From Escherichia coli (lineage in GTDB: Bacteria; Pseudomonadota; Gammaproteobacteria; Enterobacterales; Enterobacteriaceae), in assembly GCF_041248615.1 (NCBI RefSeq), contig NZ_CP158426.1: a stretch of DNA of 64,000 bases. The stretch is one strand, 5' to 3'. The notes under the pieces were generated by a model that made no database searches, was not told where the DNA came from, and was given only the letters and a program-made list of their open reading frames with translations. Shown piece by piece: positions 49,681 to 59,203 of this stretch; within the stretch, counting starts at the first letter, position 1; each line of letters begins with the position of its first letter. A program made the position numbers and the translations under genes.

Positions 49681-50202
49681 TTATTCATCGATGCATTTTA
49701 TAGAATCATCAATGGCTACAATAGTACTATTAACTCTCCAATTTATATTTTTATTATCATTGCAAATATTAACTGAATCTATATCAATGATTTTTTTATT
49801 TTTATCTTTTATTTTGTTTACAGTTTCAATGCAATCAGCGACAAGTTGGTGTGGATTTAGATTCTTCAGATATGGTCTTATGATCTTTCCCTTGCTTAAT
49901 AAATAGCATGTATAGGATTCGGAAAGTCCAGCATCTATTTTGTACATCATTATTCTAGATAAGGATGTGAGAAATGCCTTGTTATCATTAGCAGCCATAT
50001 ATGCCAGTCCGAGTTCAGCCTCTGCGGCTTTACATGAAAAATAGCTAAGTGAACACGCTTTTCGTCCCTCTTGGGTACTGGCTGATATTAGTGCCCATAA
50101 TATTGCCTTGTCTGCCAAATCCAACTCTCTCTGAAATTGGTTTACAGTAACTGCATTCGCAGAAATAGAGAAGAAAAGCACAATTGTTAATAACCTTGTC
50201 AT
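49681..50202 (-). CDS. Hypothetical secreted Cys-rich protein (candidate periplasmic immunity protein of the orphan module)
   Basis: 173 aa; signal peptide MTRLLTIVLFFSISANA; seven Cys; AT-rich; starts 4 nt after the stop of the upstream small ORF. Confidence 0.5.
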   Translation of the reverse strand: MTRLLTIVLFFSISANAVTVNQFQRELDLADKAILWALISASTQEGRKACSLSYFSCKAAEAELGLAYMAANDNKAFLTSLSRIMMYKIDAGLSESYTCYLLSKGKIIRPYLKNLNPHQLVADCIETVNKIKDKNKKIIDIDSVNICNDNKNINWRVNSTIVAIDDSIKCIDE

Positions 50203-50206
50203 ATTT

Positions 50207-50482
50207 CTAGTCCGTCACTGTTAATGTGCTATCTGGCTCTGAAAATATTAGCTCATTTAATTTTTGCATGTCATTAGATGAACCAGTTATACAACCCTCG
50301 GAACAGAATCGAGGTCCTAAAGATGGACCAAAAGCGTTTAAACAACTATGTGTTAAAAATCCATCACGATTATACGTTTCTGTATTTGCTGACGGTACTA
50401 AACGTATACCATTAGGTTTTCTATTGGTTGCTCCAGGACTGTTAAGCAAGCCTCGTCCGGTTTGCTTCATTGAGTTCTCCAC
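50207..50482 (-). CDS. Hypothetical small protein (candidate orphan toxin tip)
   Basis: 91 aa; internal Met MKQTGRG (start at 50470) has GGAG SD 7 nt upstream; preceded by a vestigial rhs start ATGAGCGGAAAACCAGCGG...TAA. Confidence 0.4.
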   Translation of the reverse strand: MENSMKQTGRGLLNSPGATNRKPNGIRLVPSANTETYNRDGFLTHSCLNAFGPSLGPRFCSEGCITGSSNDMQKLNELIFSEPDSTLTVTD

Positions 50483-50570
50483 TTTAGACTATTGGACTAT
50501 CTTTCAACATGGCATCGCCTTAGTATACCGCTGGTTTTCCGCTCATTGTTAATTTTCTCTTTCGTTCATT

Positions 50571-50981
50571 TCACTTAATTTTCAGTTTTTTCCAAAAGTC
50601 AATATTCCCTTCTAATAAAATTTTTTCTATGGAATCTTCATTAATTTTATTATTAGAGCATATGACATTATCTTGAACGCCATATGACACCACCCCGTTT
50701 TTATCAATATAATATCTGTCTTTACCATCAATAATATAAATCCTAACATTTTTATCATCAAAATGGTAACACTCATTACTAGACCTGTTCAGTAACATTA
50801 ATAACTTCTCACGATTTATCTGTAATAATTTTTGTGCACCATCTTTTATTGCAAAATTTTCAATTTTACTTTTAGTGACAGGGGAATATGTTTGGATGCG
50901 AAAAGGCATCCTATAATGGAAAACATCAGCTATACAGCAAGATGAAAAAAATACGGAAATAAAATACAGACATACTTTCAT
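50571..50981 (-). CDS. Candidate Rhs immunity protein
   Basis: 136 aa; AGGAG SD 5 nt upstream; 57 bp downstream of the rhs stop; AT-rich; hydrophobic N-terminus MKVCLYFISVFFSSCC. Confidence 0.55.
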   Translation of the reverse strand: MKVCLYFISVFFSSCCIADVFHYRMPFRIQTYSPVTKSKIENFAIKDGAQKLLQINREKLLMLLNRSSNECYHFDDKNVRIYIIDGKDRYYIDKNGVVSYGVQDNVICSNNKINEDSIEKILLEGNIDFWKKLKIK

Positions 50982-51038
50982 ACCATCTCCTAAACTGGTG
51001 ATATATTAAAAACATACCCAAAAGCAATATAAAAATGT

Positions 51039-53124
51039 TTAATATTTCATTCTTGCTGGCAAGCCCAACTCTTTACGAAATGGGTTTTCATATTTATCAA
51101 CATTAGCCATCGAGTCAGTTCCATCGTCTTTCATTCCCTTTGCATGCCCCATTTCATGCGCAAGAACCACACTCAACAGAGTGGGTTTCATGGCACATGC
51201 TTTGTTTTTTCCTTGATATACACATGAGCTATGGTCGTTATCAATATCAATGTAAAAACTATATTCAGTATCATCGTAGCATGTTTGGTTTATGCCTTTT
51301 CTTAATCCTCTAAATATATATTCATGCTCTGATGACTCTAATTCTTCTGTTATTTTATGTCCAAACTTTGTTTCTGCTACAGCTTTATATGCTTCTTTTA
51401 AAGTTTTTTGTGTACTTTCATCTCCCTGAAAAGACACTTTTAACCCTAATGGATCGAAACCAGATACCGGATTCAACGGATACTGATAAAAATTCCATCC
51501 CCCCTTAAGCCCAATCGGATCCTGAGTGATATACCGCCCCTGCAGCGGGTCATAATAGCGGTGGCGGTTGTAATAGAGGCCGGACTCCTCATCATACTGC
51601 TGACCCGGCAGGCGGATGAGCTGCTGCAGCTGGTGCGGGTTCTCTTCATTCAGCAGGTTGCCCCATTCATCGTATTCTGCGCACCATTCTGTTGCCCCTT
51701 CCGTGCTGACAAGCGCCAGCGGCAGGCCGCGATGGTCGCAGTGGTACAGGTGGATTTTTCGCGCCGGCGTGTACACCGGGTCCATCTGGTTTTGTATCTG
51801 CTCCACCGTCAGGCCGCACGATGCCAGCCAGCGGCGGCTTTCCTCACTCACCCGGTCAGCCAGGATTTCACTTTCCAGCCGGTCGAGCATCTGCACCAGC
51901 ACCGGCGGGAACACCACACTGCCACCGTCTTCACCGCCGGACTGCTGAAGCGCATCCGCCAGGCTGCGGCGCTGCGTTTTCGCCAGCTCACCGGTGGCAG
52001 TTTCAACTCTGATGAGTGGCGTGAAGCTCCCCGGCTGATAAACCGTCTGGATGCGGGTTCTGTCGTTCTGTATTGTGGTCAGCCGGTCGCCGTCCCAGCC
52101 GTACCAGGTCACTTCCGGTTTCCGTGACAGCGACATCCAGCCCGTCAGGTCCCGTTCACGCCGCCACACCCGTTTTGCCACCCTGCGGCCCAGCGGGTCG
52201 TAAAGATAGCGACTTTCGACCAGCGGCTCTGCATATTGTGTCCGCGTGTAGTGCACCAGCCGGTGCCGGCTGTCGTAATGGTACCGGTGAGTCCGCTCAT
52301 CATCCGTGCGGATAACCCCTTCCGGGATGAGGTCGGTTTTCTCCGTCAGCCTGCCGTGACGGTCATACCGGTAAAGATAGTGCGCGTCACGGGCGATACG
52401 GTTATCCGGCCACATGCTGAGGGTGCTGTCCGGGTGCAGCTCCGGGTCGGGCAGGCGGTTACCTGCCGGGTCCGTGGCATACGGGATGCGGATATCCAGA
52501 TTCGCTGCGGTGGTGTGGACGCCGGTCAGCCTGCCGGTGTCGCTGTAGCTGTAACTCCGGGTCTGGCGCGGGCTGCTGATGCGGATGAGTTCGCCGTTGT
52601 CGTTCCAGGTGTAATCGCGGTCATACTGCAGGCTGTTCAGGTGCTGGCTCTGTAACTGCCCGGCAGAGGTGTAAGCGGTGGTGAGTTCATAACGGCCGAA
52701 GCTGCGCAGCGTTTCCCGGTGCAGGCGGTCGCGGGTGTACTCCACCAGCGGTGTGTCGCCGAGTTTCATGCCTGACAGCCAGCCGCTGCCGTAGGTCAGC
52801 CATTCCACGGCGGGCAGGCTGTCCGGTATACAGCGGTTCGCCAGTCCCTGCGCGTTGTACGCATGTCTGGTTTCATGCTGCCAGAGCAGTGCTTCCGTCT
52901 GCGGGTGATGCACCGTCTGGCGCTCACCGGTCAGGCGGCCTTTCTCATCATACCCGTAATGCACCGTCACCCGGTGGCCTTCGCTGAGATGGCTGATTTG
53001 TGTCAGCCAGCCGCGTTCGTCGTACCGCCACTGTTCTGCGGTTTCACCATTCACCGTTCGCTGTGTGATGCGGTCTGCTTCGTCATAGTGCCAGTGGGTG
53101 ACCAGCCCCTCATCCTCGCTGCGG
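51039..53124 (-). pseudogene. rhsA: rhs C-terminal fragment: YD-repeat core, DPxGL boundary, HExxH-containing C-terminal toxin domain
   Basis: YD repeats; ...[11 protein letters not shown]...[17 protein letters not shown]...; the ORF-track start [14 protein letters not shown] is encoded by the IS21 end. Confidence 0.85.
53119..53124. repeat. Target-site duplication CTGCGG (IS21-family insertion), copy 1
   Basis: Identical hexamer at 55706-55711 immediately outside the opposite IS end. Confidence 0.6.
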
Positions 53125-53209
53125 TGCGTATTACCGTGAAGGAGATCGGTGAGTAACATCGATGGAGATCGGTTCGTGTCACTTTCACAGAACCGTTTTT
53201 AAATTACCT

Positions 53210-53959
53210 TCACTGATCTCCTTCGGTCAACGGAGATTGTATTTTCCGCATTGATTCTCCTTTAAGTTCGATCTTGATACTGCCATGAACCAGTCGATCT
53301 AGGATGGCATCCGCATGTGTGGAGTCTCCGATCATTTTGTACCAGTTTTCCACCGGCAACTGGCTCACTACGATGATTGAGCCTCGTTGGTACATCAGAT
53401 CCACTATTTCCAGCAGGTCGCTACGCTGTTCTGATGAGAGAGGTTCCAGCCCCCAGTCATCCAGAAGCAGCAGATCGCTATTATTCAGCCTGGTCAAAAG
53501 TTTGCTGTATCTTCCATCAGCATGCCCCTGATAGCACTGTTCCATCAGCGCTTTAAGGCGATAATAGTAGACCTTGTATCCCTGTCGGCAGGCATTATGA
53601 CCAAGTGCACATGCCAGGAACGTTTTACCGCTGCCGGTGGCCCCGGTCAGTAAAATATTTTGTTTCAGGGTTAACCAGTTTCCCTGACTGAGTGAACGGA
53701 TGAGGGCCCTGTCCAGCCCTCTATTGTTACGATAATCCAGCTTTGATAACTCAGCATTAAGTCTGAACCGTGCATGTTTGATCAGACGCTCTGCCTTCCT
53801 GTTTTCACGGCAGGTTAGTTCTTCTGCTGTCAGTAATGACAGGCGTTCTTCGAAGCCCAGCTCCTGGTATGTGCCCGGCTGAGCAAGTTGCTTTTTAAGC
53901 GCATCACGGAAGCCGGTGAGTTTAAGTGCGGTCAGTTGTTCGTAAAGATGATTCATCAT
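53210..53959 (-). CDS. istB: IS21-family helper ATPase IstB
   Basis: 249 aa; Walker A GATGSGKT. Confidence 0.9.
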   Translation of the reverse strand: MMNHLYEQLTALKLTGFRDALKKQLAQPGTYQELGFEERLSLLTAEELTCRENRKAERLIKHARFRLNAELSKLDYRNNRGLDRALIRSLSQGNWLTLKQNILLTGATGSGKTFLACALGHNACRQGYKVYYYRLKALMEQCYQGHADGRYSKLLTRLNNSDLLLLDDWGLEPLSSEQRSDLLEIVDLMYQRGSIIVVSQLPVENWYKMIGDSTHADAILDRLVHGSIKIELKGESMRKIQSPLTEGDQ

Positions 53960-53970
53960 TGGATCCCGTA

Positions 53971-55512
53971 TCAGTGGTAATACTCACTGCCGCGTACGTT
54001 TTCGTGTTCCATCGTGGATAACAGATCTGGTTTTGGATCCTGAACAGGTTGTTTATCCAGACCTTTTTCCAGGATCGATTTAATACCTGACAGACGCCAT
54101 ACCTTTGTTTTCAGAGCTCTTGCACATGCTGCATTAAGTCTGGCTTTACTGTATTTTTTATGAAGGTTCAGGAGTCCAAGGCAGAAGCGATAGCTTTGTT
54201 CCGGATGTGGACGAGAGTTCAGTATATGAAGCACATAACTATGAGTTTCACTGCCTATGTGCCCCGCCCATTCCAGAAGACGCTCTGGCGTCCAGGTGGC
54301 ATGCTGTCGATGAGCTTCAGGCATGTGCTCGTTGCGGGTACTGTAGCCATAAGTACGCTTGCGCGGGTGCACAGCAACCTCCTGCCCCTGATTGAAGAGT
54401 CTTACCAGTTCTCCGGAGATCCATGCTTCCAGTTGCTGGCCTAACAGCGAACATGGAACCGAGTAGTAATGTTTGTCGATTTCCACGTGGTAATCGGCAT
54501 GAACTCTGACTTTCTTCACCAGGGTGTAACTGTAACTGGCTTCAGGAAGAGGCTTCAGTGCGGGTTTATCAAGCTGGATGAAGAGTTCTGCACGTGAATA
54601 ACCCAACTTCTGCATTATTTTGTTATTCAGTCTTTCCAGCAACTCCCGAATGCGCTGATTAAGCGATGCAAGGCTGTAGAAGATCTCATGCCTGATTCGG
54701 GCCATGATCCAGCGTTCAACAACCTGAACGCCAACTTCAGCTTTGGCTTTATCTTTCGGTTTACGTGGCCGCGCAGGCAAAACTGCGACATTATAATGCT
54801 CAAGCATCTGCTGGTAGGTAGGGTTAACGTCAGGATCATACTTACATGCCCTGGATGTGGCGCTTTTCAGATTGTCCGGAACAACAAGTTCAGGAACGCC
54901 ACCCAACCACTGGAAGCAGCGAACATGACTCATCACCCAGTCTTCAAGCTGCTGAGACCAGGTGGCCTCTGCCCATGTGTAACTTGATGCCCCGAGAACA
55001 GCTACGATGACCTGAGCAGTTCTTATTTCTCCGGTCTCAGGGTCGGTAACGCCAACGGTAGGTCCACAGTAATCAACGAAAAGTTTTTCGCCAGCTTTAT
55101 GTACCTGACGCATTGATGGTGAAGTGGTTTTGAGCCATTCACGGTACATCCGGCAGTAATGGTTATAGCTGTAAAAACCGCCTGGATTACGCTCACAGTA
55201 TTCTTCCCAGAGTAGCTGCAGCGTCACGCATTTATTACGCAGTTCCCGGTGTACTGTAGCCCAGTCAGGCAGAGAGTGCTTCTTCATCTTAACCTGGGTC
55301 TGAAGGAACGCATGTTTTAGTTTTGTATCATCCCATCCTGTAGGTAAGGGCCACTGCTTTATGCCAAGTTGAGCCGCCCGATTAGCATATCTGGATACAA
55401 CGGAAGGGGAGATTGCAAGACTACGACCAATTTGTCGATGGCTGAGTCCAACACCGTATTTAAGCCTAAGAATTTCTTTAAGTTTTCTCATAGAAATTGG
55501 AACTGTTGGCAT
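53971..55512 (-). CDS. istA: IS21-family transposase IstA
   Basis: 513 aa; N-terminal HTH and DDE integrase core. Confidence 0.9.
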   Translation of the reverse strand: MPTVPISMRKLKEILRLKYGVGLSHRQIGRSLAISPSVVSRYANRAAQLGIKQWPLPTGWDDTKLKHAFLQTQVKMKKHSLPDWATVHRELRNKCVTLQLLWEEYCERNPGGFYSYNHYCRMYREWLKTTSPSMRQVHKAGEKLFVDYCGPTVGVTDPETGEIRTAQVIVAVLGASSYTWAEATWSQQLEDWVMSHVRCFQWLGGVPELVVPDNLKSATSRACKYDPDVNPTYQQMLEHYNVAVLPARPRKPKDKAKAEVGVQVVERWIMARIRHEIFYSLASLNQRIRELLERLNNKIMQKLGYSRAELFIQLDKPALKPLPEASYSYTLVKKVRVHADYHVEIDKHYYSVPCSLLGQQLEAWISGELVRLFNQGQEVAVHPRKRTYGYSTRNEHMPEAHRQHATWTPERLLEWAGHIGSETHSYVLHILNSRPHPEQSYRFCLGLLNLHKKYSKARLNAACARALKTKVWRLSGIKSILEKGLDKQPVQDPKPDLLSTMEHENVRGSEYYH

Positions 55513-55705
55513 AGGTATCCTTTACCGGAATGGCAAAAGATACAGATCAACACACCTGTGAAGTTCCAATAACATTGATGGAGATCACTGAATAACAAAA
55601 TGAGTCAAAAGTGATCTCCATCGATGTTATTCAGCGATCTGTTCAAATGTTATTACCCGATCTCGATGGAAGTTATTGAGTGATCTCCTTTCATGAAAAT
55701 ACGCA

Positions 55706-55711
55706 CTGCGG
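55706..55711. repeat. Target-site duplication CTGCGG, copy 2
   Basis: See copy 1. Confidence 0.6.
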
Positions 55712-56723
55712 ATAAGTTTACCGGTCAGGTCGTGGTGATAACGCTGTGTGCGGCCGTCAAAGCCGGTTTCCTGTATCAGCCGGTCGAGTACATCGTAACG
55801 GAAGGTGGTGTGGCTGCCGTTTTCACTGGTCAGGCGGATGACCCGTCCGGCAGCATCGTATTCCATACTGCGCGTCAGACCGCCCTGTGTGGTACGGATG
55901 GCCTTTCCCCACGCATCGTACTGTGTCCCGTTTCTGCTGCCGTCCGGGGCAATGACGGCGGTCAGGTCACCGGCGGCGTTGTATTCATACCGCGTTTCAT
56001 GGCCCTGCGTGTCTTTCACCGCAATTAACTGTCCACGGCTGTCGTATGCGCGGTACTGACTCAGCCCTTCCTCGCGGTGCACCGCCGTCACCTGACCAAA
56101 ACGGTCATGGTCATAACGGGTTACATAACCGGAACAGTCAGTGACGGTCAGCAACTGACCGTAACGGCTCCATGTCATGGTTTTCCGGCTGCCGGTGGCA
56201 TCTTCCGTTGCGCAGGGTAAGTCACTGTGTGGATTATCATAACGGTAGCGGGTGATATCGCCGTTGTGTGCGGTTTCCTGAATCAGACGGCCGGATTCAT
56301 CATATTCCCGGCGCAATTCCAGCCCGTCAGGCCCGGTGGCTGACGTTAACTGGCTGTGGTGGTTATAGTAAAATGCCGATGCCCTGCCATCCGGTGTGGT
56401 GATGCGCGTGATGAGTCCCGTCACCACATCCGGGCTGTACTCAGTCGTCCGGCCTGCGGCATCCGTCTGTGCCTTAAGCCTGCCCACCGCGTCAAACTGA
56501 CTCTGCGTGACGCTGCCGTCCGCGTGTTCCTTTTTCACCACCCGCTTCAGCCCGCCTTCGCCCTGCGTGTGCAGCACTTCACGGCGGTCCAGGCTGTCGG
56601 TGATGGTGATGTGGTCTTTCTCATACTGATACGTGTAGCTTAAGCCTGCCGGGTTTAGCTGTTCTGTCACCCGCCCGTCACTGTCGTAACGGTAACGGAT
56701 TTCCGGCCGGCCCGTGTGACGGT
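55706..56723 (-). pseudogene. rhsA: rhs middle fragment (YD-repeat region) between the two IS elements
   Basis: YD-repeat protein segment ...RYDHDRFGQVTAV...YHHDLTGKLIRS; reading frame runs into the IS ends on both sides. Confidence 0.85.
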
Positions 56724-57478
<755 letters not shown>

Positions 57479-57582
57479 ATCAGCATACTTGTCCTTAGCC
57501 TTCTGCAGTGACAGCTGGTAGTACAGCGTGCTTCTGGCCAGCCCTGCAGCCTTTAACAGGTCAGACTGGCAGTGTCCGCACC

Positions 57583-58113
57583 TCAGGCTCCGGATGACTT
57601 TCGTTTTTTCTCCAGCTCCTGGCGCTTTTTTTCCAGGAGATGCTCCTGCATGGCTTTCAGATATGCATTTTCTGCGCGAAGATAACGCAGCTCATTCTTC
57701 ATCTCTTCCGGCGTCATGTTTGCCTCGTTTTCATGGGTATCATCAGAACGGGTCATGCTTTTCTCCTTCCTGCGCCTGATAAAGGCCTCATTACCAGATT
57801 TGCGGTAGCCTTTTATCCAGTTTTTAACCGTGTTGTGGCTGGGAATGTTAAACCGGGCAGCTACCCGGGGTAGAGACTCAGAATGCCCGAGAGCATAAAG
57901 AACCACGCAAAGTTTATCTTCAGGAGAATAGCTACGCTTGTGTCTGCAATCCAGTGCCCGAGGACCGTGAAGAAGAAAAAGATTAATCCAGTGTGAGAGG
58001 CTGGTGTGAGAAAGTTGAAAGAGTTTTGCCGTAGAAATGATGCCTGTATGACCAGCCAGGTAATGATTTACAGCGGCAAGTTTTACTTCAAATGAATGTT
58101 TCATAAACTGCAC
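57583..58113 (-). CDS. IS3-family transposase OrfA (HTH)
   Basis: 176 aa; N-terminus resembles IS150-group OrfA; leucine-zipper-like C-terminus. Confidence 0.85.
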   Translation of the reverse strand: MQFMKHSFEVKLAAVNHYLAGHTGIISTAKLFQLSHTSLSHWINLFLLHGPRALDCRHKRSYSPEDKLCVVLYALGHSESLPRVAARFNIPSHNTVKNWIKGYRKSGNEAFIRRRKEKSMTRSDDTHENEANMTPEEMKNELRYLRAENAYLKAMQEHLLEKKRQELEKKRKSSGA

Positions 58114-58155
58114 CTTCAGATGTCAGATTATGTCCAACATTTGGGGTGCAGTTCA

Positions 58156-59203
58156 GGTGCGCCACCATCCGGCCCCGGTATTTATCATCGTAAGTAAAGC
58201 TGCGCACCTGTGTATTGCTGCGGTCATACACCGCCGCCAGTTCGCCGCGTGGCGTCCAGCCATAGCGCACCAGCGGCGCGGCAGGTAAATTCTCCGGGTA
58301 TTCCGGGTCGTGCGTCAGCCACACGGCAGACAGACGGATGCCGTTGTCCCGGCCATATTCGGTGTAACCCGGCAGGGTATCAGGAAAAACGGACGGTTCC
58401 ATCCCGCCGGAAATGGCCTGCTGCCGGGCTTCTTCTGCCCGCTGCGCCTGCGTGGTCAGTACCAGCCGGAAGTGACGCCCGGCACCATCCGTCACGCCGG
58501 TGATTTCGCCGCTGAATTCGCCGCCAGCCTCACGGTGGAACGTCTGTGTGCGCCCGAAGCGGTCCACCAGCCCGGTCAGTACCCGGTACGGCGGCAGCGG
58601 CGCAGGCAGCACCTCATCCGCCTCCGGCACCCGCTCACACCAGCCGAGTACCCACCACGGCCCCTGCGGACTGTTCGTCGCCAGATAACGATGCGGACTC
58701 AGGCGAAGCTCTTCCGGCAGCGCCTGCCAGAGTGCGGCCAGCCGGTGACCTTCATCCAGTTTCGCCACGCCGCCGCGCACCAGCCAGAGTGACTCGCTGC
58801 GGCTGTAACCGTCCTCACCGGGAAACAGGTGCTCAAAATACAGGCTTCTGCCGCCGTTATCACTGAGTATCAGTGTGTTATCGCGCAGCTGTAAGCGGAT
58901 ATCCGCAGGCATTTTCCAGCCGGGGCCGAGGCTCCCCACCGGCGCGGGCGTTTTTGTCCGGTAACTGCTGTAGGTGCGGGAGAGGATGAACGGCAGCGGG
59001 CCGGGCAGGGCAAGGTCGGTTTCGCCGGGAAGGACCTTCGCGCCGAGCAGCGGATTGACCGGATGGCCGGACGTCACCCCGCCGGGGCACACCGAACAGG
59101 CCACGCCGGTGGGGGCACCGATGCGCACCCCGGCTGAACCCTGGACAATGCTACCGCCATACTGCGTCATGTCGCCCTGACGCGCCGCCGGTTTTCCGCT
59201 CAT
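58156..59203 (-). pseudogene. rhsA: rhs N-terminal fragment (PAAR-like N-terminal domain and first YD repeats)
   Basis: MSGKPAARQGDMTQYGGSIVQGSAGVRIGAPTGVACSVCPGG...; the frame reads into the IS3 end. Confidence 0.85.

Follow-up and report, generated by a model that had tools for sequence, protein, structure and literature searches.

What does the C-terminal end of the Rhs protein encoded at the rhsA locus of this Escherichia coli strain do, and in which compartment of the cell would it do so? The window analyzed here, a stretch of 64,000 nucleotides from contig NZ_CP158426.1 (assembly GCF_041248615.1), covers the E. coli rhsA locus, in which selB-selA-yibF is followed by rhs and then by yibH-yibI-mtlADR. 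A sequence-only reading of this DNA had proposed that the last ~130 residues of the Rhs protein form a separate, zinc-peptidase-like tip that, together with a small gene immediately downstream, makes up a swapped toxin/immunity cassette aimed at a target in the cell envelope. The evidence assembled here supports both the cassette and the envelope-located target, and makes it probable that the cassette is an Rhs polymorphic-toxin system in which a 133-aa zinc endopeptidase tip of the Peptidase_M91 / Tox-HopH1 type is paired with an exported cognate immunity protein. Where that reading spoke of a single Rhs protein it has to be corrected, as rhs is in three pieces in this strain, separated by the insertion sequences (IS) ISEc12 and IS1397. 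The tip, the downstream gene, and the rhs pieces are encoded on the minus strand throughout.

Anatomy and composition of the toxin tip

The C-terminal Rhs open reading frame (ORF) occupies 51039..53159 and ends in KVSFQGD...ARMKY. Intact rhs copies are present in other genomes, and in one of these (WP_072617383.1, 1380 aa, locus L001) the NCBIfam RHS_core model spans residues 1-1247 and stops at DPLGL, which leaves the last 133 residues as the tip. In the window these residues are encoded at 51042..51440, with the stop codon at 51039-51041, confirming a separate tip of about the size first estimated. Rhs proteins self-cleave at their boundary motif, and by family precedent the cleavage point here would lie between DPLGL and the following K. 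The motif itself, read from the sequence at 51441..51470, is of the PxxxxDPxGL form named in a 2024 preprint.

The AT-rich character claimed for the tip and the downstream gene is evident from their GC content: 0.351 for the tip and 0.282 for the downstream ORF, as against 0.613 for the core. At an identity of at least 99%, the cassette is found in 180 of 5426 complete E. coli genomes (~3%), on the chromosome in all of them, where it is annotated as 'RHS element core protein' and 'hypothetical protein'; in contrast, a core query (52950-53350), half of it ISEc12 and half rhs core, has matches in 4704 genomes. The break in composition, combined with the patchy presence of the cassette (180/5426) against a widespread core, is the pattern by which a swapped module is recognized.

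Within the tip, the HExxHxxGxxD motif noted in the sequence-only reading is present as H95..D105 (51126..51158), where H95 and H99 would serve as zinc ligands and E96 as the general base, with G102 at a turn. The six-frame translation of the window contains five occurrences of HExxH, and a bare HExxH is weak evidence by itself; the extended pattern HExxHxxGxx[DH] occurs once, in the tip. Nearer the C terminus, conservation picks out E118-N119, which lies in helix 112-124 and supplies the [DE]N element of Tox-HopH1, followed by R130 and Y133 in the C-terminal tail (51042..51089). Separately, three cysteines are common to the enterobacterial tips: C73 (51222), C82 (51195), and C54 (51279). The first two border a subgroup-specific insertion, QGKxKxC, that is missing in most relatives, and a C73-C82 disulfide, if formed, would fit activity in an oxidizing periplasm.

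Family membership of the tip

When 1.84 billion cluster representatives (50% clustering) were searched exhaustively with HMMER, 104 relatives of the tip were recovered at E<=1e-3, whereas a word-indexed protein search with the tip returned its own cluster only. In most of the relatives listed, a DPxGL-type Rhs boundary stands directly before the tip. Conservation was scored on an alignment of the 53 relatives that cover most of the tip, in which H95, E96, H99, N119, and R130 are invariant and G27, G77, G98, G102, D105, G107, N113, E118, P120, and Y133 are at least 90% conserved. Peptidase_M91 (PF14891) is the sole recurrent Pfam family among these relatives, matched by 28 at E<=1e-3 and by 49 at E<=0.1 (best 1.3e-8). 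The tip itself matches the same family at E 0.9e-3 to 1.4e-3 (19-20 bits), in a match that splits into model positions 6-113 and 155-176, and PF14891 is also listed in the precomputed annotation of the cluster to which the tip belongs. PADLOC and NCBIfam gave nothing meaningful for the tip.

Peptidase_M91 corresponds to the Tox-HopH1 domain, which was described with the signature HExxH, [DE]N on RHS-repeat toxins with type VI secretion system (T6SS) delivery (Zhang et al. 2012, PMC3482391). The tip satisfies this signature through HEMGH and E118-N119. At the level of sequence profiles, the tip is a divergent Peptidase_M91 / Tox-HopH1 domain. The sequence-only reading could tie neither protein of the cassette to a named family; this no longer holds for the tip, and it still holds for the downstream gene, which has no Pfam match.

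Relatives of the tip also occur as fragments. An HExxH tip of another kind (GLGHEFAHAQ), a distant relative of the tip family (hhalign probability 81%, E 1.2e-5), is found on an orphan Rhs fragment of Escherichia albertii (GCA_012119315.1; L003, 4271-6417). After the fragment come, in this order, a 153-aa protein whose leader is signal-like and an orphan homolog of the downstream gene (67% identity) that has no matching toxin. At L007 (CP050150.1, 2848-3752), L008, and L009, an orphan tip that is 61% identical is preceded by ~25 residues of Rhs core before DPLGL, and the homolog of the downstream gene that follows it has no leader and appears truncated (72 aa).

Predicted structure and proposed catalytic site

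Structure prediction is in keeping with a metallopeptidase-like fold. An AlphaFold2 model of the tip, built from the alignment of its relatives, has a mean predicted local distance difference test (pLDDT) score of 96.3 and a predicted template modeling (pTM) score of 0.89. The highest fold-match scores are to the light chain of botulinum neurotoxin (BoNT) A (10.3), the BoNT-like PG1 light chain (10.1), Salmonella GtgA (10.0, with 121 of 133 residues aligned), and BoNT/X (9.8), followed by YbeY (8.2), NleC (7.0), and snapalysin (5.1). Foldseek again returned the botulinum light chains, weakly (E about 0.02), and in PDB sequences neither the tip nor the family profile found more than motif-level matches to adamalysins.

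The resemblance to snapalysin-type peptidases suggested by the sequence-only reading stands in part. The tip shares with snapalysin (M7) and the metzincins the literal HExxHxxGxxD motif and a conserved Met (M111), and the Asp of the motif, D105, is a likely ligand. Membership in the snapalysin/M7 family is rejected on fold and profile, despite the presence of HExxHxxGxx[HD], and the metzincin fold, with its Met-turn below the zinc site, was not found in the tip.

In the model, helix 89-100 carries H95, E96, and H99 and leads into a loop with G102 and D105, after which come helix 112-124 and the tail with R130 and Y133. This layout can be compared with that of GtgA, in which the zinc ligands are the two His of HExxH (His-182 and His-186) and Asp-193, located in the loop past the active-site helix; Tyr-224 adjoins the zinc and stabilizes the tetrahedral intermediate, and Arg-221 is required for activity (PMC6166728). 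The order of elements in the tip is the same: an HExxH helix, a loop Asp, and a C-terminal Arg-x-x-Tyr. Two observations, the position of Asp-193 in GtgA and the alignment of D105 to the third zinc-binding His of adamalysins when PDB sequences are searched with the profile, lead us to take D105 as the likely third zinc ligand, with E118 as the alternative. H95, H99, and most likely D105 would hold the zinc and E96 would activate water, while Y133, positioned by R130, would stabilize the intermediate, in a GtgA/NleC layout that is also reminiscent of the botulinum light chains.

A family of candidate immunity proteins with export-type leaders

As described in the sequence-only reading, the gene downstream of the tip (50571..50981; WP_000861664.1, 'hypothetical protein') encodes 136 aa, starts 57 nt past the rhs stop codon, and has an AGGAG ribosome-binding site (50987..50991) 5 nt before its ATG. 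It is intact, with the same RefSeq protein accession as in the intact locus, and its product has no match in Pfam, NCBIfam, or PADLOC. Homologs in E. albertii are 67% identical. Tips that are 58-59% identical occur in Citrobacter youngae (L010), in Hafnia alvei (L011), and on a contig from a food metagenome (L006), and a homolog of the 136-aa protein comes after each of them.

The association of this gene with the tip extends far beyond the enterobacteria. A hidden Markov model (HMM) was built from five enterobacterial proteins and searched against ten distant loci located via the toxin, which together contain 404 ORFs. The eight best matches (E 5e-14 to 0.01; next match E 1.1) are the ORFs directly after the tip in eight of the ten loci, and the metagenome-assembled genomes (MAGs) among these loci carry the labels Gammaproteobacteria, Haliea, Methylobacter, Methylococcaceae, Bdellovibrionaceae, Actinomycetota, Acidobacteria, and Fimbriimonas. 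As judged from these profile matches, the pairing is kept from Enterobacteriaceae to Acidobacteria and Armatimonadota MAGs, and this conserved pairing adds to composition and patchy presence as support for a toxin/immunity cassette. A reverse search found one immunity homolog (P0147) 22 nt after a YD-repeat protein that ends in the same tip, ...HELGHAAMGNLDNGPGQMNNINWNENLIMRQLGDFNDRTSY, and another (P0131) that is an orphan with no toxin nearby. Orphan immunity genes are usual and are commonly kept. A profile search of 5.8 billion proteins places the 136-aa family in 99 clusters, none of which has a Pfam domain, and every cluster that is named in its source is 'hypothetical'. Together, these data support the downstream gene as the candidate cognate immunity gene, the protection itself being a prediction. 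In the two other distant loci, from Uliginosibacterium (L016, 3364-3780) and a Spirochaetaceae MAG (L017, 3222-3818), the proteins after the tip have clear lipoboxes (LISSGC and LSAC), which suggests that a second immunity family exists for the same toxin family.

The N-terminus of the 136-aa protein is MKVCLYFISVFFSSCCIADV. Its leader, MKVCLYFISVFFSSCCIA (50928..50981), is hydrophobic and includes FFSSC, which fits the PROSITE lipobox pattern, as well as a possible signal peptidase I site after CIA. A hydropathy scan found a hydrophobic N-terminal segment of the export type in all 13 family members examined, whereas a PROSITE-type lipobox is present in seven of them, including FFSSC here and the clear cases LFALGAC and LIGGC. 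Of the hydrophobic, lipobox-like N terminus claimed earlier, then, the leader is a constant feature of the family and the lipobox is not. In three of the five enterobacterial proteins (E. coli, E. albertii, and L006), a CC-x-A stands just ahead of a conserved F-Y-R-I-P-F-R-I-Q-T-Y block; those of Citrobacter and Hafnia have C-D-A in its place. The CC-x-A is also compatible with a site for signal peptidase I. At the family level these sequences support export well, and lipidation of the 136-aa protein is possible; we predict that it is exported and is either lipid-anchored or soluble in the periplasm. Since every immunity family member examined has an export-type leader, the toxin probably acts in the periplasm, in agreement with the envelope-located target proposed from the sequence. 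Of the two cysteines of the mature protein, C71 and C108, the E. coli, E. albertii, and Citrobacter proteins have both, L006 has neither, and Hafnia has the first only; a periplasmic C71-C108 disulfide is possible, a weak suggestion from this distribution.

Disruption of rhs in this strain

The C-terminal core piece (51441..53124, GC 0.61) is truncated upstream by ISEc12, as seen by BLAST against the intact locus L001, and is annotated in RefSeq as a pseudogene, 'missing N-terminus'. ISEc12, an IS21 family element (istA, istB) of 2581 bp, lies inside the rhs core at 53125..55705 and is followed by the middle core piece (55706..56723), by IS1397 (IS3 family, 1432 bp, 56724..58155), and by the N-terminal piece (58156..59203), which begins MSGKPAARQGD... 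and matches Pfam DUF6531 (E 2.4e-18) and, below threshold, PAAR_motif (E 0.16). The boundaries of the middle piece and of both elements, all on the minus strand, come from the comparison with the intact locus and from RefSeq, which names the elements and flags all three rhs pieces as pseudogenes. The tip is severed here from the N-terminal part of Rhs that would load onto the secretion system, and because rhs is split by ISEc12 and IS1397, the toxin probably cannot be delivered in this strain. In the same comparison, ~114 bp of the reference locus L001 (14230-14343) is missing at window positions 45241-45261, between mtlA and mtlD, which is probably a variable intergenic repeat element.

This state of the gene raises the question of whether the cassette, its immunity gene included, is simply decaying DNA with no present function in this strain. 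The three pieces of rhs speak for decay, as does a promoter scan of the cassette, which gave 9 promoter-like sites against 10.8 expected, not above chance, and no convincing promoter upstream of the immunity gene. However, the tip and the immunity gene are 100% identical to those of intact cassettes in other genomes, the accession of the immunity protein is shared with the intact locus, and an immunity gene is the kind of gene that persists as an orphan. Moreover, the rhs/ISEc12 junction was found in one of 5426 complete genomes (NRZ14408), and because it is unique to one genome the disruption is recent. We consider decay an unlikely description of the cassette, if one to be taken seriously. 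Under the preferred reading, a toxin paired with an exported immunity protein, the intact immunity gene in this strain could still protect against kin that carry a live cassette.

A neighboring orphan module

Downstream of the immunity gene, also on the minus strand, lies an orphan module (49681..50482) that consists of the remnant of a Tlde1-type toxin and an Imm57 gene. The remnant is a 91-aa ORF (50207-50482) that matches the C-terminal part of Pfam Tlde1_dom, an L,D-peptidase type of toxin (E 1.3e-3), and contains SEGCI, which we take to resemble the L,D-transpeptidase catalytic motif. The second gene (49681-50202) has a signal-like leader of its own and is annotated in RefSeq as 'Imm57 family immunity protein'. 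Imm57 has been paired with Tox-LD-peptidase (Zhang et al. 2012, PMC3482391), and the module resembles what would be left of a displaced L,D-peptidase toxin whose immunity gene was kept. Between the immunity gene of the cassette and this module, at 50528-50546 (minus strand), the sequence ATGAGCGGAAAACCAGCGG matches the first 19 nt of rhs (MSGKPA...) with one mismatch to the start of rhs in the window, and shows no difference from the rhs start of Salmonella Dublin as given in a published primer. It may be the recombination scar of a former tandem rhs gene, or it may be due to chance (14 nt exact).

Comparison with known systems

The cassette as such is not new, because Rhs toxins tipped with M91 were listed bioinformatically in 2012, one has been shown to function as an effector/immunity pair in Salmonella, and such a toxin has been noted in Shiga-toxin E. 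coli. On SPI-19 (Salmonella pathogenicity island 19) of Salmonella Dublin, SED_RS06335 has the architecture PAAR-RHS-Peptidase_M91 and is followed by SED_RS06340, which encodes 110 aa with one predicted transmembrane segment; deletion of both reduced fitness 2.4-fold relative to the wild type, and the two behaved as an effector/immunity pair in competition assays (PMC8867033). The Salmonella 3' deletion primer, which encodes ...MGIPPRMKY and the stop codon, is identical over 40 of 40 nt to the terminal part of the tip gene in Citrobacter youngae, and the Citrobacter tip is 59% identical to that of E. coli. Because of this primer match, the Salmonella Dublin pair very likely belongs to the same tip subfamily. 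Both cassettes share the Rhs N-terminus MSGKPAARQG and a small downstream gene with a hydrophobic N-terminus, and the tips end similarly (...MGIPPRMKY in Salmonella Dublin, ...LGLPARMKY in E. coli). Unlike the E. coli cassette, the Salmonella Dublin pair sits intact in a T6SS island and has been tested in competition, whereas the E. coli copy lies at the rhsA locus, is ~40% diverged, and is disrupted by IS elements in this strain.

Within Tox-HopH1/Peptidase_M91, the tip shares the HExxH and [DE]N signature with NleD, HopH1, and XopG, but its subfamily lacks ~40 positions of the M91 model. The known members are type III effectors that cut host kinases, whereas the tip subfamily has an exported bacterial immunity partner. 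Toward GtgA/GogA/PipA, NleC, and the botulinum light chains (M27), identity is 11-17%, with no detectable homology at the sequence level; these proteins are larger than the tip, act in the eukaryotic cytosol, and have no immunity proteins.

In its working logic, the cassette resembles Tpe-Tpi (the VgrG2b C-terminal domain with PA0261, and Tpe1-Tpi1 of A. baylyi), in which an HExxH metallopeptidase delivered by the T6SS exerts its toxicity in the periplasm only and a small immunity protein is present there in soluble, lipidated, or membrane-anchored form, depending on the species (PMC6899460). The immunity proteins of the tip family show the same variety of leaders. Tpe is carried on VgrG, unlike the Rhs-borne tip, and belongs to a different protease family, as the VgrG2b domain is a DUF4157/eCIS_core gluzincin with Glu-983 as its third ligand. 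Membership of the tip in the Tpe/VgrG2b family is rejected on these grounds of Pfam family and third ligand; eCIS_core is matched by one of the 53 tip relatives, at E<=0.1 only, and the structure 6H56 is absent both from the search of PDB sequences at E<=10 and from the fold matches listed.

Weighing the proposed function

Several points weigh against a zinc endopeptidase tip with an exported immunity partner. The tip has no close solved structure, with all Foldseek matches at E > 0.01, its own M91 score is marginal (E about 1e-3), and M91 relatives such as NleD target eukaryotic proteins. The preference for D105 over E118 rests on analogy. On the side of delivery, the PAAR_motif match of the N-terminal rhs piece is weak, the effect in Salmonella Dublin was small, and T6SS secretion was not shown in that study (PMC8867033). 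The tie of the Salmonella tip to the subfamily consists of a 40-nt primer match only, two of the ten distant loci (L016 and L017) have unrelated lipoproteins after the tip, and a lipobox is missing in six of the 13 immunity homologs. Even with these points, we judge the zinc endopeptidase with its exported cognate immunity protein to be the probable nature of the cassette.

Apart from decay, three other functions can be set against this one. The tip could be a cell-wall hydrolase, a zinc peptidase that cuts the peptide stems or cross-links of peptidoglycan. An exported immunity protein fits such a periplasmic target as well, the adjoining orphan module is of the cell-wall L,D-peptidase type, and the Salmonella Dublin paper gives 'Peptidoglycan hydrolase' as the predicted activity of the homolog (PMC8867033), although this label is a prediction only. 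The closest folds, those of BoNT, GtgA, and NleC, are however sequence-specific protein endopeptidases, no peptidoglycan peptidase family is among the Pfam families matched, and VgrG2b, the analogous periplasmic metallopeptidase toxin, showed no peptidoglycan hydrolase activity (PMC6899460). Peptidoglycan is for these reasons an improbable substrate. Our guess is instead a specific envelope protein, which we favor because the nearest folds are those of site-specific protein endopeptidases.

It is still more doubtful that the tip targets eukaryotic host proteins in the manner of the type III effector NleD, with the downstream gene encoding an unrelated envelope protein. The Pfam family is named after NleD-like effectors, and the structural neighbors BoNT, GtgA, and NleC all cleave host proteins; yet small dedicated genes of a single family stand after the tip in several phyla, environmental MAGs that lack an obvious host among them, the downstream gene exists in orphan copies as is typical for immunity genes, and the phenotype of the Salmonella homolog in competition between bacteria depends on the downstream gene. 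Lastly, nucleases are the commonest Rhs toxins and YbeY shares the fold, but a cytoplasmic metal-dependent nuclease of the YbeY type is hardly credible and was rejected, given that the invariant Glu after the first His marks peptidases (which YbeY is not known to have), that peptidase folds outscore YbeY, and that the inhibitor of a cytoplasmic nuclease would have no need of the export leaders found in the immunity family.

Proposed mechanism and implications

For intact copies of the cassette, we propose that the Rhs shell encloses the tip, that self-cleavage at the boundary motif would free the tip inside the shell, and that the particle would be fired by the T6SS into a neighboring cell, where the tip would act as a zinc endopeptidase in the periplasm of the prey. 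The producer would be protected by the 136-aa protein, which, after crossing the inner membrane, would bind the toxin there in a lipid-anchored or soluble form.

Three points are added here. First, the partner immunity proteins form one conserved, unnamed, and exported family across phyla, a reason to place the site of action of the entire toxin family outside the cytoplasm. The leaders of these proteins argue against the cytoplasmic target that was assumed in a 2024 preprint on 'Rhs-Peptidase M91' in Shiga-toxin-producing E. coli (STEC) O22:H8. Second, the predicted catalytic layout matches that of GtgA/NleC, with an Asp ligand and a C-terminal Arg-x-x-Tyr. Third, this exact cassette has a prevalence of about 3% among complete E. 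coli genomes. More tentatively, and somewhat less likely than not, the tip family may consist of minimal (~130 aa) proteases related to those of the botulinum/GtgA type, which would kill bacteria by cutting a single essential envelope protein at a specific site and would be restrained by a dedicated family of exported inhibitors. The inhibitor family is found in several phyla and has no Pfam entry or relative of solved fold. If this view of the tip is true, its substrate could reveal a step of envelope biogenesis not previously seen as vulnerable.

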